Of a DNA stretch of 64,000 nucleotides, positions 9,416-61,674 are shown piece after piece. The notes below the pieces were generated by a model. The model was not told where the DNA came from. It saw nothing but the letters and a program-made list of their open reading frames with translations, and did no database searches. Source of the DNA: Mobula hypostoma (taxonomy: Eukaryota); NCBI RefSeq assembly GCF_963921235.1, contig NC_086108.1, positions 34,040,001 to 34,104,000 on the forward strand, read 5' to 3'. Position 1 is the stretch's first letter. The number at the start of each line of letters is the position of its first letter. The translations under genes were made by a program, and so were the position numbers.

Positions 9416-11049
9416 GAGAGGATATGTAAAGCCTATTTGGTTGTTAGATGAAGTGGGGAAGGGGGGCTCACAGTTAAAGGCCATATCCGCTCTTTCTCCT
9501 GCCTGAACATTAGTGCAAAGCAGTGAATGAAGTGTGTGCTTCACTGAAGTCTGCTCTCTGCTTCAGCAGGTTCTTCGACATCAGAGTCAGCATATCCATG
9601 ACTTCTAGGGTGTTGATGTTCATGGTTGTTTGGAAATTATGTAATGCATATGCACCACATCAGAGTTTGTTACCTTAGTTGCATGAAACCAATGTTGCAT
9701 TCTGTTCCATGTGGCCTGACTGCTTCATTCCTTTTTACTAGAGAATTATAGTTCGGCTGAAAACACTCAACAAGAATTGTAGTTTCCCAATGGTGCAGGG
9801 TGCCATTTTGCACAGAGGTCACTGCATACTGAGCTGGCCTGGTGTATATAGGTGGTCCCTAGGTTATGACGAGGTTCTATTCCTGATATCTGTTCCTAAT
9901 TCGGTAATGAATGAAAACAATGCTTGGGAGAGGATGACAGAAACAGCAGAGGCAGGAGAATGAGCAGAAACAGAGAGTGGCTGCCAGTGAGTGAATCAGT
10001 CTGCTTAGCCATTCCCAGCCTTGCTCAGTGCGACCCAATCCCGGATTGTTGCAGCTTGGCGGGGGAGGGGGAGGAAAGGTTGAGGAGAGAGGGCACATAA
10101 AAATGCCATTTCCACCCAGATGAAGATGCCTGCAGATCTATAGTAGCTGGCAAATTCATCCTGCCCATCTCTCAAATGCCTGAAGAAATGACACCCTATC
10201 CATTCTGAAAAAGACCACTTGCAATCCTGCGGTATCTGGTAAACCCATCCCCATCCATCCTGCCATTCTCCCAATCACTTGATCGTATGAACAGGTATTC
10301 GTACCACGGGGAGGACCTGTAATTCCAGCAAATGGCATTCTACTACCTCAGCCTCCAGCTGGTGTGAATCAAGTGCAGCAAATTTTGCAGTTCAATAGTT
10401 GGTCTCTTCAGGCATTCGTTCCACAGCAGTCTACTTTGCTAACTGTATTTAAGCCATTGTGGCAAACTAACTGATTAGCCATGGGGCACCAGGGACTGCT
10501 TGCCAACAACCTGGCTAATGACATTGGTGTGCAGGCACGCTGGTGAAAACTGTGCTGCCACATGAAACACAAATCAGCAAACCAGAAATATTAACATTCT
10601 GATTGTCCACAGTGCTCCAGAGGGACTCTGCAGTACATAGAGAGCAAACGTCGAAATTTGTGGTGGATTGCTGCGTACTCTGTCCCCATAAAGGCAAGCC
10701 TCTGCCAGCAGCTTTGTAGCAATTGTCTGAGACGATGGACAAGCAATAGGAAGGAGGGGAGGAGACAAGCTGGGCCCCTGCCATATTCAACTCAATTGTA
10801 ACTCGAGGCCACTCCCTACTCCTCTCCTCCTGCTGTAGCTGACCATTCTAAGTCCTCCTGACTACAATGCAAAAATCCAGTACAGCATCCTAATCAAATT
10901 CACAAATGTGATAATGCCGTATTATCTGCAAAACCTAACTGATCACATTTGTATAATCCCTTCATTTTGTGTCTTTGCCTGCCTCAGGGCACCGATACAG
11001 TCTTGCATCAAAGTTCCTGTTGCCTGCGAGCAGAAAAGACTGCAGTTCA

Positions 11050-11190
11050 AAAACAGGAGATGTTCTACAGATGCTGGAAATACAAACCAACACACACAAA
11101 ATACTGCAGGAACTCAGGAGGTCAGGCAGCATCTGTGGAAATGAATAAACAGTCAACGTTTCAGCCCAAGACCCTTCTTCAGGACAGATC
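11050..11190 (-). mobile_element. Penelope-like pLTR fragment with hammerhead motif
   Basis: The minus strand reads GTC-CTGAAGA-AGGGTCTTGGGCT-GAAAC-GTT-GAC, followed by the conserved pLTR tail. Confidence 0.7.
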
Positions 11191-11612
11191 GACTTGGTGC
11201 ATGATCTTGAAGACCGGGTCAAACTTCAGATTGTGACATCTCAGCATGCAAAGTGATTGAACGTTATCGGCTCGGCATTTAGATCCTTTGGAGTTTGAAC
11301 CTTGATATTAATCTACATGGTTATCAATCCTATAACCCTTCACAATTTTCCTCAGCCTCCATAGAGAAAGAGCTTATTTATTTCCTTTACTAATGTTTGC
11401 ATTAAGTCTTGATCAGGTTAAATAAGTACTGCTTATCACATTCCCTGTGAGGGTGGGTGAGAGTGACTATCTGTATTGTGGGAGTAGTCTTGATGAGTGG
11501 TACCCCTCGCTCTGAATTTTCTCAAGCATTTCTTACTTTATAGCTAATTTGTACCTCAAGAATTTGGTTATCATCAGCACGCAGTATTGTTAGAAATATT
11601 ACCTTTATACAT

Positions 11613-12063
11613 TACTGTACAAAAGTCTTGTTCAAATGTAAAAAAAATTCTGCAAGGAAAAGATGCGTTTAAAAATAATGGAATTAAATTACCTAAATAT
11701 CAAAATAATTACTATAAAGAGTTGTGAACAGTTAAAAAAAAACTAACTCTAATCAATATTTGGTGTAACCACGCTTTAAAACTGCATCAATTCTCTTAGG
11801 TACACTGTCACGTAGTTTTATAAGAAAATGACTGGTAGGTTGTTCTAAGCACCTTGGAGAACTTGCCACAGTTTCTCTGCAGACTTTAGCTGTCTCACCT
11901 GCTTCTGTCCAGGTAATCCCAGACAGCCTCGATGATGTTGAGATCAGTGCTCTGTGAAGGCCATACCATCTGAAACCATATAATAGTTATAGTCATACTT
12001 TATTGATCCCGGGGGAAATTGGTTAATCATCTGGGGTGCCTAAGATTTTAGCACAGAACTGTA
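11613..12063 (-). mobile_element. Non-autonomous Tc1-derived element
   Basis: Terminal inverted repeats TACTGTACAAAAGTCTT / AAGATTTTAGCACAGAACTGTA. Internal minus-strand WPSQSTDLNIIEAVW transposase remnant at about 11920-11968. Confidence 0.7.
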
Positions 12064-12364
12064 AAGAATAATTCATTCAAAAACAAACATATTTAACTTT
12101 TACACAGATTACTCAATATATCCTTGTTTTATTTCCATACTAAACTGGGGCAAGGTCATATTTTTTGATTAAAACATTGTAAAGGCATTTCCTTTTCACC
12201 AGACTAATTCATTTGCTTTAAAATAAAACAGCTGTTTATTTTTTTTTGGTTTAGGTTATTGCATTTTTCTTACATAAATTGAAAAAAGACAGTATCATAT
12301 CCCAATAACTTCTCAAAAAAACACTTGGCATCAATTCCAGGAAAAAAAATGACAAGTAGAGTAG

Positions 12365-12585
12365 GCAGTACATACAAAAAATACTGGTGAACGCAGCAGG
12401 CCAGGCAGCATCAACAGGAAGAGGTACAGCCGACGTTTCGGGCCGAGACCCTTTGTCAGGACCCTTCACCAGCATCTTGGCCTGAAATGTCGAATGTTTA
12501 CTTGATGCTGCCTGGCCTGTTGAATTCCTCAAGCATTTTGTGTGCATGGAGTTGATTTCCAGCATTTGCAGATTTTCTCTAGTCT
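12365..12585. mobile_element. Short inverted pair of Penelope-like pLTR ends
   Basis: Left arm is minus-strand (hammerhead core CTGACAA, mutated). Right arm is plus-strand (GGCCTGAAATGTCGA...GATGCTGCCTGGCCTG...TTCCAGCATTTGCAGA). Confidence 0.7.
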
Positions 12586-12804
12586 GGGTTTTGAAACAAT
12601 AGTTATGGTACAATTTGCTCAAATTGTCCCAAATAGGAATAACCTTAATGTAATTGAAAATTACAGCCTGTAAAACCTAAAATAAATTCATAAAAATTGT
12701 CAATTTATTTCTGCTGGAACGCCGTTTTATCTTGATTTATTTTCATTTCTTCTCTTTTCTTAACCTGCTCCCTTTCCTGTTTTGTGCTGTTTTTAAGAGA
12801 TGAT

Positions 12805-13206
12805 CCAGAATTAAAGTCAGGTTTAATATCACTGGCATATGTTGTGAACTATGCTGTTTTACAGCAGGATTACATTCTAAATTAAAAATTATAAATTGCA
12901 TTAAGAAATATATAAAAATTTTAAATTAAATAGGTACTGCAAAAAGAGAACAAAAAAGAAAAAAAACAGTGAGGTAGTATACATGAATTCATTGTCCATT
13001 CTGAAATCTCATGGCGGTGGAGAAGAAACTGTTGCTAATACGCTGAGTGTGTGCCTTCAGGCTCCTGTACTCCATCCTCGATGGTAGTAGTGAGAAGAGG
13101 GCATGTCCTGGGTGATGGGCGTCTTAATGATGTATGCCAACTTTTTGAGGTATCTCCTTTTGATGATTTCTTTGATGCTTGGGAGGCTAGTGTCTGGGAT
13201 AGAGCT
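12805..13206 (-). mobile_element. Rex1/Babar LINE 3' half (host of the Gypsy insertion)
   Basis: Minus-strand SSIPDTSLPSIKEIIKRRYLKK... followed by the 3' tail (reverse complement of AGTCAGGTTTAATATCACTGGCATATG). Ends at the Gypsy target site GAGCT (13202-13206). Confidence 0.8.
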
Positions 13207-13415
13207 TGTGATGCTTAGATCTATTTCTTTTAGAGTGATGATGTCCCCTGCACCCAGCACTTTGTATAGGCTGTTGTCTACGCATGCACATTGATCTGTT
13301 GTCTGTGCACGTGCATTGTTCTTTCTCTCACTTATTGCAATGTGAATACACCATTTAAAGCCATCTCCTACGTACGTGCCTTTATATAATTGATAAGTAG
13401 TTACAAAGTCACAAA
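13207..13415 (+). repeat. Gypsy 5' LTR
   Basis: Starts with TGT right after GAGCT. Aligns by eye with the reverse complement of 18900-19071 (shared CTTTTAGAG, CTGTTGTCTA, TTAAAGCCATCTCC, TGCCTTTA, AATTGAT blocks). Confidence 0.8.
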
Positions 13416-13584
13416 GTGGGAATGAATATGTCAGGGAACATCACCGACTGCGCCAACAGCTATGGGATGACTACAGGATGAAACAGTGACAGGAAAGAGT
13501 TAAACAATACAGAGAAAGCCGTCACAGAAACTAATAAAGGGACGCGTGGATAACTGTATAGTACACTGTACACTCAAAAGTGAA

Positions 13585-14617
13585 AATGGCTTTAGTCGGA
13601 GAAGTTGACAAATTCAATACTGCTAATGAAGGCTGGGAGTTGTATATTGAGAAGGTTGAAATGTGTTGTAATGTAAGCAACGTGAATGAGGAAAAGAACG
13701 ACATTTCTTGACTTAATGGGAACTAGAACATACAGTCTCTTGTGCAACTTCACAACCTCTGAAAAACCAGCAAGCAAGACATCCAACAAAATTATTAATT
13801 TTCTAAATCACATGAACCCTAAACTGCTGGTAATAGCTGAGAGATTTAGATCTGACAAAAGAAGCCAGTCAAAGCATGAAAGCATTTCTGAATACTTAGC
13901 AGATCTGCATAAATGTTCCCACTTCTGTGACTTTAGAGATGGACTTTCTGATGTATTAAGGGACAGGCTTGTATGTGGCATACGTGTTCAAAGCACTCAG
14001 AAAAGGCTCATGTCAGAAAGTGACCTACCTTAAAACGAGCATTGACAATTGCAATACTATTAGAGACTGCAACAAAGGATGCAACAGAACTAATGAAAAA
14101 GGTTTAAGAAAGTGAATTGCACAAAATGTCCCTGAATGGTGCAAAAAGCCAGAAATGTTATCGATGTGGCAAATCCTCCCATGATGCAAATGACTTCTGG
14201 TTCAAAGAAAAAGTCTGTAGAAAATCTCACAGACAAGGTCACATAAAGAGAGTGTGCAAGACAGACAAAAAGCACAACCAAGTGAAATGTTTCAAACACA
14301 AAACTAAGCAAATGCATAAAGTTACCAAATGTAAAACAGAATCAGACAACACAGTCTGACAAAGATGAGCCGTCATGTCGAGAACTACATAGAATTACTG
14401 AAGCAGATCACAAAATCATATGGATCACAATAGATGTATCTGGTGTAAAAATGAAAATGGAACTAGATACATGGTCAACTTTGTCTATAATTTCAGAAGC
14501 TGACCAGCTGACTACAACAGACTATTTTCTAAACTACCATTAGAGAAGACCTTAGTGATACTAAACAACTACACAAGTGAATAATTGTCTCCCAAAGGCA
14601 AACTGAAAGTGAATGTG
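13585..14617 (+). mobile_element. Gypsy LTR retrotransposon gag and protease (degenerate)
   Basis: KPASKT...NPKLLVIAERFR...Q...ESISEYLADL...CDF.DGLSDVLRDRLVCGI (gag). CYRCGKSSH and degenerate CRKSHRQGHIKRVC zinc knuckles. IWITIDVSGVKMKMELDTWSTLSII aspartic-protease motif at about 14417-14492. Confidence 0.9.
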
Positions 14618-16128
14618 ATGGAAGCAAAAGAAATGGGGGAGATCTTAAATGGGTTTTTTGCATCTGTATTCACTAAGGAAACTGGCATGGAGTCAATGGA
14701 AATAAGGAAAACAAGTAGTGAGGTCATGGAACATATACAGATTGAGGAGGAGGAGATGCTTGCTATTTTGAGGCAAAGCAGAGTAGATAAATCCCCAGGA
14801 CCTGACAGGGTATTCCCTCGGACCTTGAAGGAAACCGGTGTTGAAATTGCAGGGGCCCTGGCAGATATACTTTAAATGTCTGTGTCTATGAGTGAGGTGC
14901 CAGAGGATTGGAGGATAACTCATGTTGTTCCATTATTTAAAAAAGCTCTAAAAGTAATCTGGGAAATTATAGGCCAGTAAATTTGACATCAGTAGTAAGT
15001 AAATTATTGGAAGGAGTACAAAGAGATAGGATCTACAAGTATTTGGATAGACAGGGACTTATTAGGGAGAGTCAACATGGCTTTGTGCGTGGTAGGTCAT
15101 GTTTAACCAATCTATTAGAGTTTTTTGAGGAGGTTACCAGGAAAGTGGATGAAGGGAAGGCAGTGGATGTTGTTTACATGGACTTCAGTAAGGCCTTTGA
15201 CAAGGTCCTGAATGGGAGGTTAGTTAGGAAGAGTCAGTGGCTAGGTATACATGGAGAGGTAGTAAATTGGATTAGACATTGGCTCAATGGAAGAAGCCAG
15301 AGAGTGGTAGTGGAGGATTGCTTTTCTGACTGGAGGCCTGTGACTAGTGGTGTGCCACAGGGATCAGTGCTGGGTCCATTGTTATTTGTCATCTATATCA
15401 ATGATCTGGATGATAATGTGGTAAGTTGGATCAGTGAATTTGCTGATGATACAAAGATTGGAGGTGTAGTGGCCAGTGAGGAAGGTTTTCAAAGCTTGCA
15501 GAGGGATTTGGACCAGCTGGAAAAATGGGCTGAAAAATGGCAGATGGAATTTAATACAGACAAGTGTGAGGTATTGCTCTTTGGAAGGACAAACCAAGGT
15601 AGAACATACAAGATAAATGGTAAGGCACTGAGGAGTGCAGTAAACAGGGATCTGGGAATACAGATACAAAATTCCCTAAAAGTGGCGTCACAGGTAGATA
15701 GGGTCGTAAAGAGAGCTTTTGGCACATTGGCATTTATTAATCAAAATATTGAGTATAAGAGCTAGAATGTTATGGTGAGGTTGTATAAGGCATTGGTGAG
15801 GCCGAATTTGGAGTAATATGTGCAGTTTTGGTCACCAAATTACAGGAAGGATATAAATAAGGTTGAAAGAGTGCAGAGAAGGTTTACAAGGATGTTGCCA
15901 GGACTTGAGAAACTCAGTTACAGAGAAAGGTTGAATAGGTTAGGATTTTATTCCCTGGAGCGCAGAAGAATGAGGGGAGATTTGATAGAGGTATATAAAA
16001 TTATGATGGGTATAGATAGAGTGAATGCAAGCAGGCTTTTTCCACTGAGGCTAGGGGAGAAAAAAACCAGAGGACATGGGTTAAGGGTGAAGAGGGAAAA
16101 ATTTAAAGGGAACATTGGGGGGGGGGGC
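14618..16128 (+). mobile_element. CR1 LINE RT region inserted into Gypsy pol, 3' end missing
   Basis: ORFs 14585..14875, 14983..15765 and 15820.. contain [39 protein letters not shown] and FADDTK. The sequence ends in a G-run before the CR1 tail. Confidence 0.95.
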
Positions 16129-16337
16129 ACTCACCAGAGGTTGGCACAGCTGCTTTATGTTAATAAGCTGTTTGAGAAGGGGATTGGTAAACTCAGAGCC
16201 ATGAATGCCAGAACTGAACTGGATGAAGCAGCAACACCAGGAGTCCATAAAGTGTATCCAGTGTCTTATGCGCTGTTCTAAAGTGGGTGCTGAATTGCAA
16301 AGCTTGGAGGTGCCTGGAACTCTCTCCAAGATTGAGT
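16129..16337 (+). mobile_element. Gypsy pol fragment preceding RT
   Basis: LFEKGIGKLRAMNARTELDEAATP.VHKVYPVSYAL / KVGAELQSLEVPGTLSKIE. Stops abruptly at ATTGAGT (16331-16337). Confidence 0.85.
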
Positions 16338-17490
16338 CAATGGTGCTAATTTGGATCTTCAGACGGACTTTGACAAGGTGTTGCACATGAGACTGCTTAA
16401 TAAGAGCCCATGACATTACAGTGAAGGTACTAGCATGGATAGAAGACTGGCTGACTGGCAGTAGGGAAAAGGGTGCCTATTCTGGCTGACTGCCGGTGAC
16501 TAGTGGTGTGCAGGAATAATGTTGGGACTGCTTCTTTTCACATTGTATGTCAATGATTTGGATGCAGAAATTGATGGCTTCGAGGCTAAGCTTGTGGACA
16601 ATACGAAAATAGGTGGAAGGGCAGATAGCGTTGCGAAAGGAGCGTGTCTGCAGAAGGACTTCAGATTGGGGGATTAGGCAAGTGGCATATGGAATATAAC
16701 ATAGGGAAGTGCATGGTCATGCATTTTGGCAGGAGGAATAAAGGTGTGGACTATTTTGTAAATTCAAAAATCAGAGGTGCAGATGGACTCAGGAGTCCTC
16801 GTCCAGGATTCCCTAAAAGTTAACTTGTAGGTTGAATCAGTCATAAGGAAGGAAAACGTAATGTTTGCATTCATTTTGAGAGGACTTGAGTACAAAAACA
16901 AGGATATAATCCTGAGAATTTATAAGGCATTGGTCAGCCCACACTTGGAGCATGTAAGCAATTTTGGGCCCCTTATCTAAGAAATGATGTGCTGACTTTG
17001 GACGGGGTCCAGAGGAGGTTCAGCAGAAGGATCCCAGGAATAAAAGGGTTAACATATGAGGAACATTTAATGGCTCTGGGCCTGGTGTTTAGAAGAATGA
17101 GTAGGAGCATCTCATTGCAACCTATCGATTTTTGAAAGGTCTGGATAACATAGATGTAGAGAGGTTGTTTCCTATAGTGGGGGAGTCTAGAACCAGAGGG
17201 AACAGCCTCAGAATTGAGGGACCTCCCTTCAGAGAAGAAATGAAGAAAATTTCTTTAGTCAGAGGGTGATGAATTCGTGGAATTCATTGCCAAAAACAGC
17301 AATGCAGTCCAAGTCATTGGGTACATAAAAGGTGGAGTTTGATAGGCTCTTGATAAATCAGGTTACGGGGGGAAGGCAGGAGAATGAGCTTGAGGGGGAT
17401 AACAAATTAGCCATGATGGAATAGCAAAGATTCTCAAATAGGCAGAATGGCCTAATTCTGCTCCCATGACTTATGATTTTATCGTCTTAT
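16338..17490 (+). mobile_element. CR1 LINE RT and 3' end (degenerate), beginning at the inversion breakpoint
   Basis: LDLQTDFDKVLHMRLL, PVTSGV and LVSPHLE remnants. 3' tail GAATGGCCTAATTCTGCTCC...TCTTAT. Confidence 0.85.
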
Positions 17491-17539
17491 TAGCTGGATC
17501 AGCAGGAAGGGACTTTTCTGGTGGAGATATCAGTCTTCA

Positions 17540-17775
17540 TCGCTTATGTCAGAGAATCTCTGCTGTATAGTCCCGGTGGGTGTTAGTTTGGTCAGAGTAA
17601 ATGATAGAGTTGTAAGAGATAGGTTAGGAGTCACATGGATTATGTCCACTAGCCTGTGAGATACAACCTCTTGTTGGAAGCGAGGTGAACCAAGGTGAAA
17701 AAGAACAGGGGGAGCACAGTAGAGAATTCTACCATAAGTGTCGGAGGTAAAGTCCTTCATTGAATGTAGATTTTT
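17540..17775 (-). mobile_element. Possible highly degenerate Penelope RT remnant
   Basis: Minus-strand IYSDQTNTHRDY loosely resembles the Penelope IYxKPTxxHxYL thumb motif. Weak evidence. Confidence 0.25.
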
Positions 17776-18594
17776 GTACCTAAGGATGGTGATAAATCAG
17801 TTGTAGTTTTATGGTTTCAGCAATATCAAAGATGATGTTACTGCTAACATGACCAATATATGGATGACAAATAAGAACATCAAATTTTAAAGAGTTGATT
17901 TCCTCATATACAAATTTCAGGGGAAATATGATAATTCAATTGTGAAGATAAATCCTTTCAGTAGCATTTATGGTTTGCAGAAATGCCTCATTAATTATAA
18001 TGAAGAGAGTTTGCTATAACAATAAAATCATCACTCTGTGACATTTGCAAATCAATTGCCCAATATATCTGCCACACGAAGTTCCATTTAGAAATTAATT
18101 ATGTATTCTTTAAACAATTTCTAATCACAGAGTGGGTTATTAGCAAAAGGGTTTCTCATTTCTGTAACACGTAACTTGACATTGAACGGACCTCTTCTAC
18201 TTTAGATTGCCTCTGTCCTTCCTTCTATCTTCTCAAGTCTTTATTTCCATTGGTTAAGAGAATGCCTTGCTTGTCCCATGATGCATCAAGGTCACTGATT
18301 CTCTGTTATCCTAGTGGTTATTTTATCAGCTTGTACAGCACAAGTCTCTGGAGAAAAAAAACTTTAAAGATCTGAGCATACATTCTCTAATTCAACAAAT
18401 AAGGCTCATACTCCATTCTTACAAAACAAATCTTATACAAAGGCGTGAACCTGAAGTGGTATGAATCGATTTTTATGCAGTGCAGCTATCACTCAGATTT
18501 CATGGTGAAGTACAAAGCAATGGCATTAGTTGATGGCCTGAAAGAAAATTGCCCACAATGATTCAGGCCATTCAATTGATTTCCTTTCTTCTGG

Positions 18595-18899
18595 GAACAC
18601 ACATCAGTCTTCGTCGAGGGATCTGCAGTGGAAAGTGTGAGTAGTTGCAAGTTCATGAGTGTCAACATCTCTGAAGATCTATCCTGGGCTCAACATATCG
18701 ATGCAGTTACAAAGATGGCATGTCAGTAGCTATCTTTCATTAGGAGTTTGAGGAAACTGGATATGCCACCAAATATTCTCATAAATATTTACAGATGTAC
18801 TATGGAGAGCATTCTAACTGGTCACAACACCATCTGGTATCGAGGGCCTACGAAACAAGATCGGGAAAAGCTCCAGAAAGTTACAAACACAACCAGCTC
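18595..18899 (+). mobile_element. Rex1/Babar LINE 5' half, partner of 12805-13206 and now inverted relative to it
   Basis: LRKLDMPPNILINIYRCTMESILTGHNTIWY...REKLQKVTNTTSS ends at AGCTC (18895-18899, reverse complement GAGCT). The reading continues as SSIPDTSLPSI in the 12805-13206 piece. Confidence 0.85.
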
Positions 18900-19086
18900 T
18901 GTTGTGTCTCTGCAGCTACACATCAATTCAGTAAAGGCATGCACGCGGGAGATGGCTTTAACTGGGGCGAGAGGGAGCAATGTGTGTGCGAAGACGACAG
19001 TTCAGCACACGTGCATAGACAACAGTCCATATGTCGTGCAAAGAGGAGTCATGGCTCTAAAAGGAATTACACTTCCTCCCCCTTTA
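18900..19086 (-). repeat. Gypsy 3' LTR (18900-19071) with polypurine tract (19072-19086)
   Basis: Minus strand reads CTAAAGGGGGAGGAAG (PPT), then TGTAATTCC...GAGACACAACA, then the GAGCT target-site duplication. Confidence 0.85.
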
Positions 19087-19269
19087 GATTCAGAATCAGG
19101 TTTATTATCACCAGCACGTGTCATGGAATTTGTTAACTTAGCAGCAGCAGCAGTTCAATGCAATTAAAGGAACATGAAACTGAATATGCATAAAACATTC
19201 AATTTCCCCTTCACAAACCATATTCCAAATAAACATGCTTTCACAATAATAGTCCATAACTAACTTCAC

Positions 19270-20872
19270 CACACTAAAGATTGAGTGTTTTTTTGGGTGG
19301 TGCCGTTCCTTTCAGGATAGTGCCTCTGGACCTGTGCAGTGGCATCAGGACTGGTAGGTGTCTTGACTAAGACAATGTTCTCATAGTGTCTCTGGACCTC
19401 TATTATTTGGTACTCATGAACATAAAAGCGGACTCCTAGGAACGTTGTAAATGGGTAGCAGATATCACTAGAATTCCCTTCCTGCGATTGAAAATGGACA
19501 CAAGAGGCTGGTGGTCTGTCACTAGAGTAAACTTTTGACCATAGATGTAGTGGTGGAACTTCCTTATTCCCTATACAAGGTCGATATCTGCTTAATTGCC
19601 TTCTATGCTCATCAGTGATCTTGCAGCAAGCACAATTGGATGTTCAGATCCATCTTTCATAGTGCGTGACAAACAGCCCCAATGCCAGAAGGCAAATCTC
19701 TGAGACTCCAGTCTGATGGGCAGGGATGGGTCATAATGACTGAGCAGTTCTTTGGATGTTATCAGTCTCTGTTTCCCTGAATGCTCTTTCACATCTTTCT
19801 AACCATTCCCACTTTGTTCTTGTCTGCAACAGTATGTTCAATGGATGCAGCACTGTAGCAGTGTTTGGGAGAAAGCAGTGGTAGTAGAGTGGATCTTATA
19901 GAAACATATAAAATTTTGAAAGAGATAGATAAGATAAAAGTAGGAAAGTTGTTTCCATTGGTAGGTGAGACTAGAACTCGGGGACATTGCCTCAAGATTC
20001 AGGGGAGAAGATTTAGGATAGAGATGAGGAGAAACTGTTTTTCCCAGAGAGTGGTGAATCTGTGGAATTCTCTGCCCAGGGAAGCAGTTGAGGCTTCTTC
20101 ACTAAATATATTTAAGACACAGTTAGAGAAATTTTTACATAGTAGGCGAATTAAGGGTTATGAGGAAAAGGCAGGTAGATGGAGCTGAGTTTACGGACAG
20201 ATCAGCCATGATCTTATTGAATGGCGGGGCAGGCTCGATGGGCCGGAAGGCCTACTCCTGTTCTTATGTAGTAGTCTACAAGACCGAAGTATGACCTAAG
20301 TTGTGACTCATTTTTGGATTCAGTCTCCTCTTGTGATTTATACAAGTCATGCTTGTCACTGACACGTTCACAATATGAGATTTCATTCCTGAAAAACCCA
20401 CATCTCTCTCTTTGCACACAGCCCATACTCTCTCAGCCTGGTAAGCTCCTCCAAAGTTCTGAAGGTGTTCTTCATCATTCTTGCCAGTCAGGATGATGTC
20501 ATCAAGGTAGCATTGCGTTCCTGGGACATCTTCAAGCACTTGGTCCATTGCTTTTTGCCAAATTCCTGGAGTCGAAGCTACGCCAAAGATGAGACGATTA
20601 CACTGGAACAGTTCCTTGTGAGTGTTGATTGAAAGGACCTTTCTGTTTGACTCCTCAATCTCCATTTGCAGATAGGCTTGTGCAGTCAATCTTTGAAAAC
20701 CTTTCCCCGCCTGTCAAAGATGCAAAAATGTCTTTTAGTCGTAGCAGGGGATACTGCACAGTATGCAGCACCGGGTTGATGCTCACCTTGAAATCCCTAC
20801 ACATGCGAACAGCCCTAGCCTTCGCTTTCTTAATCACCGGGACAATGGGCATAGCCAATCCCTCCACTCAAT
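19270..20872 (-). mobile_element. Gypsy RT/RNase H region, integrase deleted
   Basis: IEWRDW/AMPIVPVIKK...VRMCRDFKVSINP...QYPL; AYLQME...INTHKELFQCNRLIFGVASTPGIWQKAMDQVLEDVPGTQCYLDDII; GLVDYY; LLSHYDPSLPIRL; EHPIVLAARSL; FTLVTDHQPL. Confidence 0.92.
19888..20267 (+). mobile_element. 5'-truncated CR1 3' end inserted in Gypsy RT
   Basis: DLIETYKILK...TRTRGHCLKI...FSQRVVNLWNSLP. Flanked by the direct repeat GTAGTAG (19881-19887, 20268-20274). Removing it rejoins GLVDYY|HCFLPNTATVLHPLN. Confidence 0.9.
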
Positions 20873-21167
20873 GAGTTATACAGCTCTCGTTACATGCACG
20901 TGCAGTTCAACTGTTTGAGTGATTATGCAAAAAGTTTGAAGTTAATAACTCATCTCCTTCAACCTTAGGCCACTAACTTATCAATCACCCCTGCTGTGGA
21001 CCACTTTCTGGAGGCCCAAGATGCCGACTTCTACAAAGAAGAGATCCGTATGCTCCACGACCGCTGGACTAAGTGTGTACATGTAGGAGGGGACTATGTT
21101 GGAAAATAAATGCGCAAGATTTTCTAAAATTGATTCCTTAGGCCACGAACTTATCAATCACCCCTCA
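20871..21167 (+). mobile_element. Non-autonomous mariner element, left TIR lost
   Basis: Transposase C-terminus FYKEEIRMLHDRWTKCVHVGGDYVGK*. Right TIR CCTTAGGCCACGAACTTATCAATCACCCCTC followed by TA. Internal TIR copy at about 20963-20992. Confidence 0.85.
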
Positions 21168-21305
21168 TATGATCACTGACTCCTAAGGGTTCCTTTATCA
21201 TAAGCTTCCTAATCAAATACGGGTCCTTACATAACTCCCAAACCAGAAATACCATTCCCCTCGTGGGCTCAATCATAAGCTGCTCTAAACAGCATTCTAC
21301 AAACC
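21168..21305 (-). mobile_element. CR1 endonuclease fragment
   Basis: FVECCLEQLMIEPTRGMVFLVWELCKDPYLIRKLMIKEPLGVSDH, ending at the mariner TA site. Confidence 0.8.
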
Positions 21306-22779
21306 AGATTTTGACAATCTTGGGATTGCTTGAAAAAGTTTTGGACATGGGTTTGGTTAAATTACAAGAGGTGTTTTTTTTTTCATTTTTACAGAATGTG
21401 TAAAAGTTCTGAGGGATACCTGAAGTACAATGCAATGCTTTCCCATCATGAATTTTCACAGAACAATGCATGAAAATTCCATATAAATTAAACAACAGAT
21501 TACAAAGTAAGTCTGCAATATGTAACCCAAAGCTAAGCCGTCAGACCAGCCAGTCAATCAACTCGACTAACTACTTAATAAGTTCTCCAACAAATCAAAT
21601 TGAATCTGTTTCTAATTCACATATGGTCTTTATTTCTATATACGTAAGAGTATTAGCAAGCTGGCATCACTTGGTTTTAATACCATATCCTACCCAGAGA
21701 TAAAGTAGCCACAACTTTGTTATATTTGAAGCTACCAACAAGCATTAATGCCCACATATTTGTTTAATAGAACATATACCATTCTCTAGGGCAACAGAAT
21801 TATAAACGACCTACTCGTATACCTATCCGTCTTTAGTTTATGTGACTAATGGACCATAAGAACTATTCCTATATGACTACAATATAATAGAGCCCAGACA
21901 TTCCAGTAAATAGTAATTATAGGACTGATCTACATTTGTACTGAGAAATCCATTCAAATTTACAAGATCAGGGCTTGTTCTGCTTTCCTGCATCCAAAGC
22001 ATCCATTTACTCTTTATTTGTTTTTTACAATGTGAGCATAGCGTATCCCCCAGTTTTAGGTACACTTGCACTGGTACTACTCTCATGGAGTTGTTTTGGT
22101 CAGCCAGTTTTTTCTGACCCATGACTGCTTTTTTTTTGAAGCTGGTTCATTGATACAAATTTTGAAAGCAGCCATGTGTCTGATAAAATCAGGCAGTAAC
22201 TCACACATTGATTGCAAATGTGGGACAGGAGTTTTGCCATGCTATTCTCATTAACGATTTTTCCTTTTGACTTTCATGGTCACACTTATCTTAATGTGTA
22301 GATTCTGGTTAATCGTGTAAAATAAGACCCAGCAGAGAAACTATTTTTAAAAAATCAAAATGAACACTTTCAAATAAAAATGATCTTTTAGTGCCATCAA
22401 AACAAGTAAGTTCCGTTTAATGTACTCTATTATTCTTTGATAGTTCCTGTTCCTGAATAATTCACGATCTAATTATCACCATGGAATTTCTCCTTATTTT
22501 GGTTAATGCAAATTATGTGTATATTTTGCAAAGACATCTGAACAATTTCTGTGCTGTTACTAAAAATTAACAAGTAACTCAGGTGGGCTTTAGACTGATC
22601 AAAGCATGAGAGCCTGTACATGAGTTGAGGTAAGTGCAATCTATAGAAGGCAGGCTGATGCTCATAGTTTGAATCAAAACCCATGGAAACCAACACTGAG
22701 CCATGTAATTTGAACCAGCAGTGTAGCAACATTGTACTAGCAATACTGAGATGGTTGCACTTTTGTCATCTTAAGCATA

Positions 22780-24072
22780 GGATTCCCTAAAGGTTAACTT
22801 GCATGTTGAGTCAGTTGTAAGGAAGGCAAATGCAATGTTAGCATTCATTTTCAAGAGACTCGAATGCAAAAGCAAGACTGTAATGATAATCACACAATAG
22901 TGGGTCATCTCATCCGCAGCAGAGACAGAGAGGAGGCAGAGCAGCTGGTAAAATGGTGCAAGCACAACAACTTGAGTCTGAAGGTGGACAAGACCAAAGA
23001 GGTGACTCTGGATTTTATGAAAGTGCAAGGTTCCTCTCTGCACATAAATGGTTCCTTTGTGGAGAGAGTTAGGAGCACCAAGTTTCTGGGAGTGCACATA
23101 AAGGACGATCTCACCTGTTCCCTCAAAACCACCTCTTTGGTCAAAAAGCACAGTAGTATCTTCACTTCCTGCAGAGCTCTCTCTCCCTTACCATCAAGAG
23201 TGTCCTGGCCAAATGCATCACCATCTGTTACAGGAATTGCAAGGCATCTGACCGCAAGTCACCATAAAGGATTGCAAAGACTGCTGAGAGGATCATTGGG
23301 GTCTCTCTTCCACCCATCAGCAATAGTTATCAGGAGCACTGCATATTCAGGGCACCTAACATTGTCAGTGGTCCTTCCCATCTGTTTAACAACCTCTTAG
23401 ACCCCCTACCATCAGGCAGGAGATGCCATAGCATTTGGACAAGGACAGTTAGGATGGGAAACAGCTTCTTCCTTCAGGTAGTAAAACTACTGAACTCTCT
23501 GCCACCCCTCATATATGAAGCAGCAGTAGAGTTATACTGTTTACTTTTTAACTTGTATCGTATATGCCAGTGGTCCACAACCTCCAGGCCGCAGACCGAT
23601 AACGGGCCGCGAGGAATGCAGCAGTGCAGCGGTAGTCGGAATGCACCCAGCACATCTTTAAGAAAAAAGCCGAAATAAACAAGCCAATTGATTAGCTGCT
23701 GCCCGGCATGTAAATGTCAGTCCAGATCAGCGGCGACGCAATCGGCAATCGCCTCTGATCTGGGCGGACATTTACGTGCCGGGCAGCACCTAATCAATTA
23801 GCTTGCTTATTTCGGCTTTTTTCTTAAAGATGTGCTGGATGTGTTCCGGCTACCACTGCACCACTGCATTCTTCACGGCAATGTATTGGTCCGCGGCCCG
23901 GAGGTTAGACACCACTGGTATATGCAACATTACTTGTTAGTTCATTTGTGTTGATATTACTCTGTGTTATGTGTGTGAGTTATACATATTGTGTTGTGCA
24001 CCTTGGTCTGAAGGAACATTGTCTCATTTGGCAGTATACATGTGTATTGCTGAATAAACATATAACTTGAAC
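22780..24072 (+). mobile_element. Short CR1 piece followed by Rex1/Babar LINE 3' portion (hosting a hAT MITE)
   Basis: ORF 22864..23400 has WCKHNNLSLKVDKTKE...VERVRSTKFLGVHI.DDLT. Continues with LPSGRR..SI..RTVRMGNSFFLQVVKLLN and a 3' UTR ending AATAAAC..AACTTGAAC. Confidence 0.8.
23568..23917. mobile_element. Palindromic hAT MITE with 8-bp TSD
   Basis: CAGTGG...CCACTG ends. Perfect GTATATGC duplication at 23560-23567 and 23918-23925. The two halves are inverted repeats along most of the length. Confidence 0.92.
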
Positions 24073-24654
24073 TATATGATTGAGCTGATGGTGTGGTAGC
24101 AAACCTCCTTATGAGCAGTGGCTATATCCTGCTTTGCTTTCCTTTCTTTAGCAGCTGGCACACTATTTTATTGCTAAAATCTGAGCAATGAGGCTCAATT
24201 GCTTTGCTCTAAATTTAATAACTGATTAGCTTCCTTCTTTTTGATACTAGAAATAATCATAGACTCATTGGTGCAGAGGCAGTTACTAGTTCACCTTCAA
24301 ATAAGGAACAAATGGATTTGACTTTCTAAAGCCTGCCCCAATTCACTCATCAATGTGAAGGGGTTGAAGCATAACCCTAGCAGGACACATTGTGACTTGA
24401 TACTCCTCAGGCTCAACTTTGTACAAGAGCATAAATCAGTTCTTCAGACTGGAGGTTGGAGCACTTTAAAGATTCCCCATTCAATTGCTCTTCATCATGC
24501 TCCTAATGGAAAATTCCAGGGGATTAACACGATGTTCTGTTGGCTTTCATCACTTGAGATGCTTCAACATGAGTAAGTGGATTTAAAGTTAAGCAACACA
24601 CATCAAAGTTGCTGGTGAACGCAGCAGGCCAGGCAGCATCTCTAGGAAGAGGTA

Positions 24655-24692
24655 CAGTCGACGTTTCAGGCCGAGACCCTTCATCAGGACTA
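24655..24692 (-). ncRNA. Minimal type I hammerhead ribozyme motif
   Basis: Minus strand reads AGTC-CTGATGA-AGGGTCTCGGCCT-GAAAC-GTC-GACT: intact CUGAUGA/GAAA core, GUC cleavage triplet, stem I AGTC/GACT. Confidence 0.75.
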
Positions 24693-25629
24693 ATTGAAGG
24701 AAGAGTTAGTAAGAGATTTGAAAGTGGGAGAGGGAGGGGGAGATCCAAAATGATAGGAGAAGACAGGAGGGGGAGGGATGGAGCCAAGAGCTGGACAGGT
24801 GATTGGCAAAGGGGATATGAGAGGATCATGGGACAGGAGGTCCGGGGAGAAAGGATGGGCAAGGGGTCTAGTCAGAGGGACAGACGGAGAAAAAGGAGAG
24901 TGAGAGAAAGAATGTGTGTATAAAAATAAATAACGGATAGGGTACGAGGAGGAGGTGGGACATTAGCGGAAGTTAAAGAAGTCAATGTTCATTCCATCAG
25001 GTTAGAGGCTACCCAGACGGAATATAAGGTGTTGTTCCTCCAACCTGAGTGTAGCTTCATCTTTACAGTAGAGGAGGCCATGGATAGACATGTCAGAATG
25101 GGATGTGGAATTAAAATGTGTGGCCACTGGGAGATCCTGCTTTCTCTGGCAGACAGACCGTAGGTGTTCAGCAAATTTTAATTCCACATCCCATTCCCAT
25201 TCTGACATGTCTATCCATGGCCTCCTCTACTGTAAACATGAAGCTACACTCAGGTTGGAGGAACAACACCTTATATTCCGTCTGGGTAGCCTCCAACCTG
25301 ATGGCATGAACATTGACTTCTCTAACTTCCGCTAATGCCCCACCTCCCCATCGTACCCCATCCGTTATTTATTTTTATACACACATTCTTTCTCTCACTC
25401 TCCTTTTTCTCCCTCTGTCCCTCTGACTATACCGCTTGCCCATCCTCTGGGTTCCTCCCCCCCTTATCTTTCTCCCCAGACCTCCTGTCCCATGATCCTC
25501 TCATATCCCCTTTGCCAATCACCTGTCCAGCTCTTGGCTCCATCCCTCCCCCTCCTGTCTTCTCCTATCATTTTGGATCTCCCCCTCCCCCTCCCACTTT
25601 CAAATCTCTTACTCACTCTTCCTTCAGTA

Positions 25630-27324: not shown

Positions 27325-28497
27325 TAATGAGCCCATGATCGACAACATTTCTTCTCTGATCTTGCTGATTAAAGCACCGAGGAAGATTGAAATCATCGAG
27401 GCAAGCGGGGGGGGGGGGTCTGCGGTTTCAGTGCCGTCCTGAAGCTCCCAAAGGTCTCTGCGTTTGAATGGTCTCTGTCCCTCGATGCAGTCAGAAGATA
27501 GTGCTGGATTTCTGGGTCTTGGGCAAGATTTAGTTGACGTGGTTTGTGGATTGACCTCCATGTTTCATGTCATGATGTGTTTCTGGTTTCTGGTTCCTCC
27601 TTCCTTTGTTGCTATTTTGGGTGATTTTGATCAGGGCGGCGGGCAGATAACAAACTGAGTTGAACTGAATATGCCTGGACTCTTTCGATTTTATGTTTTA
27701 TATTCTGTGTTTCTCATTTTTTTGTTGTTGCTGCCTGCGTGATTTTTTGCGCGTTGGGGTGGGGGAGTGGTGATGTCTTGGGGGTTTTCGTTGTTTTTTT
27801 TGTTGCTGTTTGCGTGATTTTTTGCGCGTTGGGGTGGGGGAGTGGTGATGTCTTTTGGGGTTTTTGTTGGTTTTTTGTTGCTGTTTGCGTGATTTTTTGC
27901 GCGTTGGGGTGGGGGGAGTGGTGATGTTTTTGGGGGTTTTGTTGGGTTTTTTGTTGCTGTTTGCGTGATTTTTTGCGCGTTGGGGTGGGGGAGTGGTGAT
28001 GTTTTGGGAGTTTTTGTTGGTTTTTTGTTGCTGTTTGCGTGATTTTTTGTGCGTTGGGGTGGGGGAGTGGTGATGTTTTGGGGGTTTTTGTTGGGTTTTT
28101 TGTTGCTGTTTGCGTGATTTTTTTGCGCGTTGGGGTGGGGGAGTGGTGATGTTTTGGGGGTTTTTGTTGGGTTTTTTGTTGCTGTTTGCGTGATTTTTTG
28201 CGCGTTGGGGTGGGGGAGTGGTGATGTTTTGGGAGTTTTTGTTGGTTTTTTGTTGCTGTTTGTGTGATTTTTTGTGCGTTGGGGTGGGGGAGTGGTGATG
28301 TTTTGGGGGTTTTTGTTGGGTTTTTTGTTGCTGTTTGCGTGATTTTTTGCGCGTTGGGGTGGGGAGTGGTGATGTTTTTCTTTGAACAGGTTCCTTTTTT
28401 TTTGGTTTTCTTTGTTTCGTGGCTGTCTGTGGGGAAGAAGAATTTCAAGGTTATAAACATATATACTTTGATAAATGGATTTTGAATCATTGAATCT
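27325..28497 (+). mobile_element. Non-autonomous element with Rex-type LINE tail, containing a minisatellite
   Basis: GC-rich head. Tail GGCTGTCTGTGGGGAAGAAGAATTTCAAGGTT...CTTTGATAAAT..TTTGAATCATTGAATC resembles the tail at 29470-29560. Confidence 0.55.
27722..28378. repeat. G/T-rich minisatellite, 9 copies of a ~75-bp unit
   Basis: The GGGGTGGGG(G)AG block recurs at about 27756, 27831, 27906, 27982, 28056, 28132, 28207, 28281 and 28356. Confidence 0.95.
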
Positions 28498-33000: not shown

Positions 33001-33044
33001 ATGTGCAAAGGGTTAGCTGCATTACCAGCAACATGCCTCGAAAG
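33001..33044 (+). CDS. RGS5: Regulator of G-protein signalling 5, coding exon 1 (MCKGLAALPATCLER)
   Basis: AAAATG start, near-identical to the R4-family N-terminus (human RGS5 MCKGLAALPHSCLER). Phase-2 donor AG|GTGAGA at 33045. Confidence 0.93.
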
Positions 33045-39569: not shown

Positions 39570-40384
39570 ACTTACAGGAATAAGACAGATCAGCTGGTTG
39601 AGTGGGGTCGCAGCAATAACCTTGCACTCAACATCAGTAAGACCAAGGAGTTGATTATGGACTTCAGAAAGGGTAAGTCGAGGAAACGCACACCAGTCTT
39701 CATCGTGGGATCAGAAGTGGAACTGGTGAGCAGTTTTAAGTTCCTGTGTGTCAATATCTTTGAGGATCTACCTTTGCCCGAAAATATTGATGCAATTATA
39801 AAAAAGGCATGACAGCAGCAGTATTTCATTAGGAATTTGAGGAGAAATAGTATGTCACCAAAGGCACTTGCAGATTTTTACAGATGCAGCTTGGAGAGCA
39901 TTCTAACTGGCTGCATCACCGTCAGGTATAGTGGGGCCACTGCACAGGATCGGGGAAAAGCTGCAGTAAGTTGTAAACTCAGCCAGCTCCATCATGGGCA
40001 CTAGACTCCCAGCATCCAGAAAACCTTCGAAAGGTGATGCCTCAAAAAGGCAGCATTCATTATTAAGAACCCCCATCATCCAGGACGTGCGCTCTTCTCA
40101 TTGCTACCATCAAGCCGGTGGTATGGGAACCTCGAGACATACACTCAACATTTCAGGAACAGCTTCTTCCCCTCCGCCATCAGATTTCTGAATGGACGTT
40201 GAACCAATGAACAATTCCTCAGATTTTTTTTTCCTTTCGTTTTGCACTACTTCTTTAATTTTTTTTTATAAACACTTATTGTAGGTTATAGATTTTATTA
40301 TGATGAATTGCAACAAACTGCTGCTGCAAAACAAAAAGATTTCACAATATATGCCCGTGATATTAAACCTGCTTTTGATTCTAT
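39570..40384 (+). mobile_element. Rex1/Babar LINE 3' portion
   Basis: NNLALNISKTKELIMDFR...FKFLCVNI.EDL, YRCSLESILTGCIT and a TATTAAACCTG..TTGATTCT tail. Confidence 0.85.
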
Positions 40385-43300
40385 AAGACCACAGGAGCAG
40401 TATTAAACCATTTGACCTATTGAGTTTGCTCTGCAATCTATCATGGTTGATTTATTATCCCTCTCAAGGCTATTCTCCTGCCTTCTCCTTGTAACCTTTG
40501 ACACCTTGATTAATCAAGAACATGTGAACCTCCACCTTAAATATTCCCAATGTTTAGGCATGTACAGTCATCTATGGCAAAGAATTCCACAGATTCACTA
40601 CCCCCGGCTAAAGAAATTCCTCCTCAAATCTGTTGTAAATGAACGTCCCTCAATTCTGACGCTGTCCTAGACTCCCCCACAATAGGAAACATTCCTTCCA
40701 CATCCACTTAATCCACACCTTTCAATATTCAATAGGTTGCAATGAGATCCCCTCTCATTCTTCTAAACTCCAGTAAGCACAAGCCCAGAGCCATCAAATT
40801 CTCCTCACTTGTTAAACCTTTAATTCCTGACATTATTCTTGTGAACCTCCTCTGGACCCTCTCCAATGCCAGCACATCTTTTCTTAGATGAGGGGCCCAA
40901 AACTGCTCACGATACTCCAAGTGCAGTCTAATCAGAGCCTTATGAAGACTCAACATTACATCCTTGCTTTTGTATTCTTGTCTTTTCAAAATTAATGCTA
41001 ACATTGCATTTGCCTCCCTTACTGCTGACTCAACCTGAAAGTTAACATTTAGGGAATCCTGCACGAGGGCTCCCAAGTCCCTCTGGGCCTCTGATTTATG
41101 AATTTACTCCCCATTTAGAAAATAGTCCACACCTTTATTCCTTCTGTCAAAGTGTATGACCATACACGTCCCTACACTATATTCCCTCTCCCACTTTTTT
41201 GCCCATTTCCCCAATCTGCCTAAGTCCTCCTGCAGACACCCTGCTTCCTCAACACAACCTGCCTCTCCCCCTATCTTCGTATTAACTGCAAAGCTATCAC
41301 AACACAACCTGCCTCTCCCCGTATCTTCGTATTAACTGCAAAGCTATCAATTTCTTCATCCAAATCACTGACATACAGAGTGAAACAAAGCAATCCCGAC
41401 ACCAACCCCTGCAGCACATCACTGGTCTCCGACAGTCAACCAGAAAAGGCATTCTTTTTTTCCCATTATTTGCCTCCTGCCAGTCAGTCAATCTTCTATC
41501 CATGCTAATACCTTTCCTGTAATACCATGGGCTATTTCCTTGTTAAGCAGCTTTATGTGCGGCACCTTGTCAAAGGATTTCTGAAAATCCAATTCAACAA
41601 CATCTACTAACTCTCCTTTGTCTATACCTGTTGATTGTTTCCTCAAAGAATTCCAACAGATTCTTCAGGCAAGATTTTCATTTTAGAAAACCATGCTGAC
41701 TTTGGCCTATTTTATCATGTGCCTCCAAGTACCCCAAAACCTTATCCCCAATAAGACTCCAACATCTTTCCAACCAATGAAGTCAGGCAAACTGGCATAC
41801 AGTTTCCTTTCTTTTGCTTTTGTCCTTTTCAGAGTAGAGTAAAATTTGCAGTTTTACAGACCTCCTGAACCATTCTTGAATCTAGTGGATCTTGAAAGAT
41901 CATTACTAATGCCTCCACAACGTCTGTAGTTACCTCTTTCAGAACTCTGGGGTGTAGTCCATCTGGTTCAGGTGACTTATTGACCTTTAGGCTTTTCAGC
42001 TTCAGAGCACCTTCACCTTGGTAATAGCAATGGCACACGCTTCTATTCTGCTAGTAGGTTCCACAGTGAAGATTGACACAAAAAAACTTAATAATTCCCA
42101 CTGCCATTTCTTTGTCCCCCAACAATACCTCTCCAATATCATTTGCAGCGGTCCGATCTTCACTTTCATCTCTCTTTCACTCTTTATTTATCTGAAATTT
42201 TTTTTGTATCTTCACTGTGGGCTCAAACACAAGTTTCTATAAAAAGCCATCTTGTAGGCTTTTCTACAAATTCTCCCTCTTGGAATCCAGCACCAATCTA
42301 ATTTTCCTAATCTACCTGTGTATTGAAATCCCCAATGACCATCGCAACATTATCCTTTTTACATGCCTTTTCTAACTCTCATTGTAATTTATAATCCATA
42401 TCCTTGCTACTATTCAAAGGCCAGTATATGATTCGCATCAGGGTCCTTTTACCCCTGCCATTTCTTAACTCTACCCACAATGATTCTATTTCTTCCATCC
42501 TATCTCACCAATTTCCAAGGATTTGATTTCATTTTTTTACCAACAAAGCCTCTCCACCCTCTCTGCCCACCTGCCTGTCCTTTCGATACAATGCGTATCC
42601 TTAGATGTTAAGTTCCCAACTATGATCTTCTTTCAGCCATGACTCAAATGCCCACAACGTCATACTCATCAATCTCTAACTGCACCACAAGATCATCTAT
42701 CTTATTCTGAATACTGTGTGCATTCAAAAACAAAACTTTCAGTCTTGTATTCAGCACCGTTTTTTGATTTTTGCCTCCACATTACTCTTTAACACATCCC
42801 ACCAACAGCAATTCTGCCCTGTCATCTGCCTGTCCTTCCTCACAGCCTCGCTACATCCTACATCTAGTTGTACATCAACTGCCCCATCCTTGGCCCTAAC
42901 ACTCCGATTCCTATTGCTCTGCCAAATTAGTTTAAACCCACCCCAAACCTGCCTGCAAGGACGTTGGTCCCACTCGGGTTCAGGTGTAACCCATCCTTTT
43001 GTACAGGTCATTTCTTCCCCAGAAGAGATCCCAATGACCCAAAAATCTGAAACCTCGCCCCCTGCATTAATTCCTCAGCCAAGTATTCATCTGCCAACTC
43101 ATCCTATTCTTGCCTTCATTGACAAGTGGCATAGGTAGCAATCCAGAGATTACCACCCTGAATGTCCTGTTTTACAGCTTTCGACCTATCTTCCTATATT
43201 CTCTCTTCAGGACCTCCTCCCTCTTCCTATCTGTCTTTTGACCAAAATGTACCATGATTTCCAGCTGCTCACCTTCCTCCTTTAGAATGCTGTGGACTCA

Positions 43301-60511: not shown

Positions 60512-60622
60512 GGCCAAAGGAATAAAAACAAAGTTAGGAATCCTGCTGCAGAAGCCGGAAATCATCAGTGACTACATCATCCCATATTCTGATAAAGCGG
60601 AGAAGCCAGCTAAGCCTCTGAG
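60512..60622 (+). CDS. RGS5: Regulator of G-protein signalling 5, coding exon 2 ([36 protein letters not shown])
   Basis: 111-nt phase 2-2 exon with acceptor TTCCTAG| and donor AG|GTAATG. Matches human RGS5 [34 protein letters not shown], which favours RGS5 over RGS4 or RGS16. Confidence 0.93.
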
Positions 60623-61674
60623 GTAATGAATATTTGTTCTATTTGAATGAAGGAATTGGACAGTAAAGGAAGGGAGTGGGATGGAGTTCGGTTGTTAGAA
60701 GTAGGGAAGTAAGGCAACGAGGCACATAATGACCAAGAAGGCACAAAGATACAGTACGTTAGAGGCTTTCCTTCTTCCAGCGGTCCTCCTAAATACTCAC
60801 CATCTCCTAACCTCAGCACCAACATCTGCCATACATAACACATATGAGGTAAAAATAATTTTGGTCATCCTAAATTTTTTTTACCATTTTAATGGAAATC
60901 ATCAAAAATATTACTGTTTACTTCTGGTGGGGTGAGTAAATTGGAAGGAACGCACCTTTGAGGGTAAGTGGAAAGGGCTTCTCATTTCATCATTTTTGGT
61001 CTCACAATTAGATCTGGATTTTGAGTGCAAACAGGGCAGTATTATGGCAGAAGTGATCCCTTCTGTAGTTCTGGCAAAATATCATGGCATGATTACAGCA
61101 GGCAAGGTGACAATTCAGTCCATTGTGTCCTTGCTGATTCTTTACCAGAGCAGCCCTGAGTATTTCCATGTTCGGGCCCCTTCTCTGGTGCTATACGAGT
61201 TTTCCCTCACTAAATATTTACCCATTTCCCTCCTGAGGGTGACAGTAGATTTCATGTTATAAACGTTGAAAAAGAAAGTTACTTAATTCAATTTGAGTCA
61301 GCCATGTTCCTCCCTCACTGTCTTCTACGCACTGGCCCTTTCACAATGACATGAAATAAAATTGTGCCACATGGAAAAGATTGACCCAAACTCACAAACC
61401 ACCATGGGTGTTCAAGCTCCATGTTGCCGTTGGGATTTAACATAAACAATTCAACTAGCTGATAAATGTTACAGTACAAGGAATATACCACTGTTCATAG
61501 GTAGGATGATGGATTTCACATTTGAAAGGATGGGTTCATTTGGATGGTAAGATCGGAATCTGGTTACAGACAGGAAGTGATCAATTGTCCGTTTACCTCT
61601 TCATCACAGATGAACTATGCTGAAAACTTCCATAAATTGGAAGAATTGGCTTGGGCACCTCTGGATGCGTTAAG

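Follow-up and report, generated by a model that had tools for sequence, protein, structure and literature searches.

Kilobase-sized inversions that are joined on microhomology and accompanied by a flanking deletion are a described class, so that a single further case is of minor weight. In the accessible parts of the source reports, 75 of 252 human-chimpanzee inversions (~30%) carry deletions, which range from 94 bp to 11 kb; 49 are explained by ectopic recombination of inverted repeats, and in 63, for which microhomology was proposed, just one of the two breakpoints has a retrotransposon (PMC2603318). The dystrophin (DMD) gene of one individual (patient 2) contains a 4,260-bp inversion with flanking deletions and 2-bp microhomology at both joints (PMC4303224), and in human cells, junctions with a peak at 2-bp microhomology are the hallmark of joining by polymerase theta (PMC11541566). 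Staggered breaks are the proposed origin of the inverted duplications, of 46 bp to ~1.9 kb, at Drosophila inversions (PMC1885836). Alternative (reversed-ends) transposition, for which intact termini are needed, yields an inversion, a duplicated target and a loss at the other end (PMC8225341). Here we analyse a 64,000-nucleotide (nt) stretch of Mobula hypostoma DNA (contig NC_086108.1, positions 34,040,001 to 34,104,000; hereafter the window), in which an inverted segment at 16338-20872 splits a Gypsy retrotransposon, the long interspersed nuclear element (LINE) that hosts it and their neighbours. No report of this locus was found among the literature matches listed, most subscription papers lying outside their coverage. 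Its value is that of a worked example, with both breakpoints placed to the base, an order of events and an age bracket.

Elements broken by the inverted segment

The simplest reading of the locus, as the original prediction had it, is that 16338-20872 was inverted and that sequence was deleted at the distal junction; it is supported by the colinearity of pol, the continuity of the host LINE and a proximal-junction contig from a second organism. The analysis draws on in-window repeat copies, protein relatives and contigs from public sequencing runs. Four of 23 runs were compared (X1 from organism A, X5 and X6 from one sample of organism B, X9 from organism C), with 32 records listed of more than 537,000. 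The segment is reversed relative to both flanks, as told on the left by the host LINE and Gypsy and on the right by CR1 pieces on opposite strands, and the event is legible only through the recognisable elements that its breakpoints cut. The segment, the Gypsy element with its long terminal repeats (LTRs) and reverse transcriptase (RT), and the host LINE are laid out as follows.

16338-20872: inverted segment, 4,535 nt (protein colinearity, host-LINE tiling, CR1 geometry, proximal-junction contig of 252 nt at 16210-16461 in X5 and X6)
12807-13206, minus: 3' half of the host LINE, outside the inversion (aligns to 39985-40382, 298 of 388 identical)
13202-13206, plus: left copy of the target-site duplication, 5 nt
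13207 to ~13417 (right edge approximate), plus: 5' LTR of Gypsy (homology to the 3' LTR; host-LTR junction contigs in X5 and X9)
13586-14617, plus: decayed gag-protease part of the Gypsy polyprotein (tblastn, P0005 residues 1-350)
16120-16337, plus: Gypsy pol piece ending at the proximal breakpoint (P0004 residues 419-486)
16331-16337, plus: proximal-junction word of 7 nt, of which the final 3-4 nt are probably common to the CR1 piece
18593-18899, plus: 5' half of the host LINE (aligns to 39682-39989, 234 of 306 identical)
18895-18899: second copy of the target-site duplication, at the end of the host-LINE 5' half
19071-18900, minus: 3' LTR (homology to the 5' LTR; host-LTR contigs in X1, 18796-19110, and X6, 18792-18962)
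19082-19072, minus: polypurine tract before the 3' LTR
19379-19308, minus: weak C-terminal integrase remnant (P0011 residues 1275-1305, E 0.007)
20872-19442, minus: Gypsy RT and RNase H (P0004 residues 485-847; Pfam RVT_1, E 8.5e-09)

Gypsy pol had been read as changing strand at 16337/20872, with 7 bp present in inverted orientation at both breakpoints, and we find the same 7-mer at both places between colinear pol halves. With the minus-strand RT piece as query, 39 fish-type Gypsy polyproteins (K02A2.6-like) were returned, eight of which were mapped in detail. On P0004, residues 1-360 lie at 13595-14617 and residues 419-486 at 16138-16336 of the plus strand, and residues 485-847 at 20872-19442 of the minus strand, split by a CR1 3' end at 19887-20267. 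The plus-strand piece thus stops at residue 486 and the minus-strand piece begins at residue 485. For 31 of the 39 relatives the mapping reaches both sides of the break; the two sides overlap by 1.4-2.0 codons in 30 of these and by 14.4 in P0008, and apart from the break site nothing of the polyprotein is represented twice. The order protease-RT-RNase H-integrase is established in P0004, with whose residues 1-847 the window pieces are colinear (38-77% identity across the matched pieces).

Domain order, two LTRs, the 5-nt target duplication and the polypurine tract all fit, and place the element in Ty3/Gypsy. It resembles the Ty3/Gypsy elements of fishes in its gag-protease-RT-RNase H order, polypurine tract and 5-nt target duplication; unlike them, the window copy is dead, being split by the inversion, interrupted by two CR1 insertions, frameshifted and devoid of most of its integrase. 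About 430 codons of the polyprotein, the greater part of the integrase, are absent at 19379-19442. At 16090-16135 there is a separate deletion, where the inserted CR1 lacks ~50 3' codons and its tail and ~50 Gypsy codons are gone (P0005 residues 350 to 400). DIRS-type elements have naturally inverted terminal repeats, no target duplication and pol on one strand; such an element is ruled out here by the 5-nt duplication and the strand switch within pol.

The two LTRs face opposite ways with the same 5-mer outside each, as had been predicted, and are homologous (alignment score 160.5 versus a maximum of 82 in 500 shuffles). The host-LINE halves, likewise described as lying on opposite strands, both tile an unbroken copy at 39682-40382, where they overlap at exactly 39985-39989; this overlap is the 5-nt duplication, and the 5-mer occurs a single time in the unbroken copy. 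The tiling shows a single Gypsy insertion that was later split. We take the host to be a Rex1/Babar-like LINE; it is a C-terminal remnant, with a weak Pfam match (PF09004, E 0.008) below the cut-off. Its relative at 39682-40382 (plus strand) stands tail to tail with a near-full-length CR1 at 40394-42780 (minus strand).

The CR1-type LINEs and the element at the distal junction complete the picture.

14615-16110, plus: CR1-type LINE inside Gypsy, without its 3' end (Pfam RVT_1, E 4e-30; P0044, 74-88% identical)
16338-17490, plus: second CR1-type LINE, RT and 3' end, starting at the breakpoint (72.7% to 41614-40394; P0147 residues ~632-996)
19887-20267, plus: third CR1-type LINE, 3' end, inserted in pol, which continues on both sides (P0147 residues 903-1002, 69%)
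20872-20866, minus: 7-nt word at the distal junction; 20871-20872 are shared with the Mariner-like element
20871-21169, plus: non-autonomous DNA transposon of Mariner-like type; its right terminal repeat and TA are intact, and its left terminal repeat lacks ~41 nt
21305-21168, minus: CR1-type endonuclease piece, outside the inversion, no 3' part adjoining (21303-21169 map to P0147 residues 229-277, 49%, E 8e-12)

Flipping the segment was expected to bring the CR1 RT and endonuclease pieces into one orientation; the geometry holds, and the two were likely once one CR1 element, since no 3' part follows the endonuclease piece and the break is exactly where the RT piece begins. Among the 26 of 120 proteins that match the endonuclease piece, P0147 ranks first for this piece and for both RT stretches, and the gap between the endonuclease and RT pieces amounts to ~355 codons on P0147, P0102 and P0113. 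Probably ~1.1 kb was lost distally, of which CR1 would account for ~1.06 kb. The in-window CR1 copy at 40394-42780 belongs to the same family as the CR1 cut by the inversion and itself lacks ~180 internal codons, and the distal loss could therefore be smaller. A word-index search with the endonuclease piece yielded no candidate; an exhaustive search gave four matches, and P0162, the one scanned, has an endonuclease domain. The closest named matches of one window CR1-type LINE are from sharks (P0106, 65%; P0125, 62%). A further CR1-type protein, P0109 (the second open reading frame, ORF2; 65% identical to the window CR1), is labelled Carnobacterium maltaromaticum on a 3-kb contig, which probably reflects host contamination of that record.

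The original prediction has to be corrected at the distal break, whose neighbour is not CR1 but the Mariner-like element nested in CR1. The count of three broken elements accordingly stands for those three but rises to four with the Mariner-like element, which is also cut. Mariner elements duplicate TA on insertion, and the terminal repeat here ends in TA at 21168-21169, with repeat copies at 20963 and 21136. A 46-residue frame (20969-21106) matches transposase C-termini (SETMAR, E 2e-4; Mos1, E 7e-3). Transposase homology, terminal repeat and TA, as visible at the right end, assign the element to Tc1/mariner. Its intact right end and TA show that it inserted into CR1; the inversion is the younger event. 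A third, internal terminal-repeat copy (20963-20992) precedes the transposase remnant, so that the left part resembles a complete miniature element.

Presence in other organisms and age

Over its eight listed pieces, X1 of organism A differs from the window at one position. Organism B is ~1.5% diverged across the single-copy stretch of the inverted segment (18 differing letters of 1,233), and bridges the proximal junction with the 252-nt contig (16210-16461; 6 differences; 128 letters to the left and 124 to the right), which occurs in X5 and X6 at depths of 13.4 and 48.2, compared with 12.1 and 39 for the single-copy stretch. Because the proximal junction is present in contigs of a second organism, misassembly of the inversion is unlikely, and the inversion is older than the split of organisms A and B. 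The host-LTR junction is also spanned by a contig of organism C (X9; 28 of 318 letters differ), which puts the Gypsy insertion before that split as well; inside the inversion, organism C shows little cover at 90% likeness. One X9 record (record 25, 13103-13418) matches as far as the 5' LTR extends and continues with 39 letters outside the match, for which a solo LTR or a different sequence is possible. None of the 15 joints listed, of more than 4,100, is a strand change, which weighs neither for nor against the inversion.

The LTRs of an element start out identical and diverge with time, and later recombination can disturb the dating, according to the accessible text of PMC2672092. The window pair is identical at 122 of 172 aligned positions (71%), with 39 gap columns and a Kimura two-parameter distance of 0.38. 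Contigs at least 90% identical to either LTR are few (at the LTR places listed, their depths add up to 0-116), and we therefore read the divergence as fitting the age of the insertion, with later conversion possible. The inverted DNA is a stack of already dead mobile elements, and the event is old. It may serve as a presence/absence marker across related species.

Joints, mechanism and alternatives

At the distal joint the microhomology is 2 nt, as both X5 and X6 show by their loose ends at 20871. Other Mariner-like copies match from this position and extend leftward with a mirror of the terminal repeat, which places the break ~41 nt inside the left end of the element, with 20871-20872 fitting both sides. 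At the proximal joint, the alignment of the in-window CR1 copy continues past the break over 9 nt of Gypsy, 7 of them matching and the final 3 in a row (4 if gapped), which is suggestive of a microhomology of 3-4 nt. As part of the 7-nt repeat is shared with the partner elements, a true duplication of as little as 1-2 nt would suffice, the rest of the word then being microhomology with the partner. Of 5000 random pairs of window positions, 82 (1.6%) had a shared inverted word of at least 7 nt no more than 10 nt away.

In the order of events that we propose, Gypsy inserted into the Rex-like LINE, as the target duplication shows, and the Mariner-like element entered the neighbouring CR1, as its intact right end and TA show. 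Two breaks or two template switches would have followed, one in Gypsy pol and one over ~1.1 kb comprising the CR1 middle and the Mariner left end; both new joints would have formed on very short microhomologies as 16338-20872 flipped in one germline event. That the locus belongs to the general class of microhomology-joined inversions with a flanking deletion, by end joining or template switching, we hold to be very probable. At both joints, the strand that derives from Gypsy carries the shared letters at its 3' tip. This fits a 7-nt staggered break with polymerase-theta-type joining and equally two template switches, as in FoSTeS (fork stalling and template switching) or in MMBIR (microhomology-mediated break-induced replication). 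The two pathways give the same junctions, no templated insertion is present, and they are not separable here.

Several observations weigh against an inversion of this kind. No contig bridging the distal junction (20872/20873) is among the 32 records listed; in X1, the run closest to the window, depth falls to zero at 16279 and the proximal junction is not seen; and X5 and X6, being one sample, are not two independent bridgings. An un-inverted allele was not seen in any organism compared. The rank-correlation test for a common family of the Gypsy halves gave a weak 0.47 (p 0.09, n=14; 14 of 39 proteins usable), and the corresponding test on the two CR1 pieces did not discriminate (Spearman 0.34 versus 0.38 for a control CR1; 26 of 120 usable). 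The LTR identity of 71% is low. The proximal microhomology depends on a single in-window CR1 copy, 73% alike, and a 2-nt microhomology is frequent by chance.

A transposase cut at the Mariner-like left end could instead have made one of the breaks, followed by resection on both sides and misjoining to the break in Gypsy pol. The distal deletion covers exactly this left end, each of the four runs compared has the family in very high abundance, and the copy is close to others, with 28 of 30 letters of its inner repeat agreeing by eye with the X5 loose-end consensus. There is, however, no transposon end at either junction, a 1.1-kb loss in repeat-dense DNA would often cover some element end, and a single event is beyond statistical test; we regard this origin as unlikely. 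That a one-ended Mariner cut started the event and that the family left many kilobase inversion-deletions in the lineage is similarly a slim prospect. If it were true, broken nested elements would make it possible to date structural changes in a group of vertebrates that evolves slowly.

Two opposite Gypsy copies, an element composed of two subfamilies, or a misassembly would account for the LTRs being 71% identical with 39 gap columns and for the lack of a distal bridge among the records listed. Against them, the target duplications match and host continuity is exact, the halves meet within 2 codons with no other part of the polyprotein in common, the proximal junction occurs in another organism's contigs, and both LTRs look old rather than one foreign; these explanations are very improbable. 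Less probable still is alternative (reversed-ends) transposition, with the 7-nt repeat as target duplication and the deletion as the piece between transposon ends. A Mariner duplication is TA, not 7 nt, and intact termini are required at both junctions, which here consist of CR1 coding sequence proximally and the inside of a terminal repeat distally. The geometry as such, with an inversion, a duplicated target at the junctions and a loss at the other end, is similar in the part of the report we draw on (PMC8225341). Ectopic recombination between inverted repeats, which accounts for the 49 human-chimpanzee inversions (PMC2603318, as far as accessible) and would suit a repeat-dense region, can practically be dismissed, as the joints link unrelated families (Gypsy-CR1, Gypsy-Mariner-like) and no inverted pair spans the breakpoints (none of at least 20 nt among 10 pairs in 10000-25000, with a self-comparison in agreement). 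LINE twin-priming was rejected, as what is inverted is a set of several elements together with single-copy DNA and not the 5' end of one LINE.

Neighbouring DNA and comparison with described inversions

The remaining features concern the non-repeat DNA of the segment and a downstream gene.

17491-18592: single-copy stretch inside the inversion (depth 13-19 in X1 and X5 versus thousands to more than 1 million in repeat bins)
33001-33044, plus: first coding exon of an RGS5-like gene, start codon at 33001
near 60513-60623: putative second exon of the RGS5-like gene

The single-copy stretch is the sole non-repeat DNA in the inversion. Against six Gypsy proteins it gave no match below E 0.05, and a six-frame reading showed nothing clear, Pfam not having been scanned. 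The inversion had been placed about 12 kb upstream of the RGS5 promoter; the distance stands (12.1 kb from the start codon to the distal break), and the gene is presumably RGS5. A PDB search with the putative second exon gave no RGS match and returned only chance matches to designed repeat proteins. A functional link is without support. If ~1.1 kb was lost, the event left the single-copy stretch at about the same distance from the start codon, ~14.4-15.5 kb by coordinate arithmetic. On this geometry alone a regulatory effect on the RGS5-like gene is unlikely, because the distance is unchanged and only the orientation is altered, and the event was presumably neutral; a role of the flipped 1.1-kb stretch as a regulatory element of this gene is a weaker and unlikely addition.

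Provided that the putative exons hold, intron 1 of the RGS5-like gene spans ~27.5 kb (33045-60512). An 8.8-copy tandem array of a 75-nt G/T-rich unit (27721-28378; 94% matches) lies ~4.6 kb upstream of the start codon. At 23562-23923 there is an inverted repeat with 175-nt arms, 84% complementary and 12 nt apart, probably a miniature DNA transposon. For annotation in general, an LTR element whose ends face opposite ways risks being misannotated as two fragments.

Compared with the described systems, as far as the accessible parts of the reports extend, the locus comes close to the inversion of DMD patient 2 in size (4.3 versus 4.5 kb), non-recurrent breakpoints, 2-nt microhomology and a ~1-kb flanking deletion. 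It differs in that one end here carries a 7-nt inverted duplication rather than a deletion, and in being old, present in two organisms and set among dead repeats (PMC4303224). With the Drosophila inversions it shares the presence of one breakpoint's sequence in inverted form at both junctions and the lack of inverted repeats, whereas the duplication here is at most 7 nt, of which up to 5-6 are possibly microhomology with the partner (PMC1885836). Among the human-chimpanzee inversions, it resembles the deletion class and the cases with a retrotransposon at one breakpoint and proposed microhomology, in contrast to the main class, which arises when two copies of one family recombine (PMC2603318).

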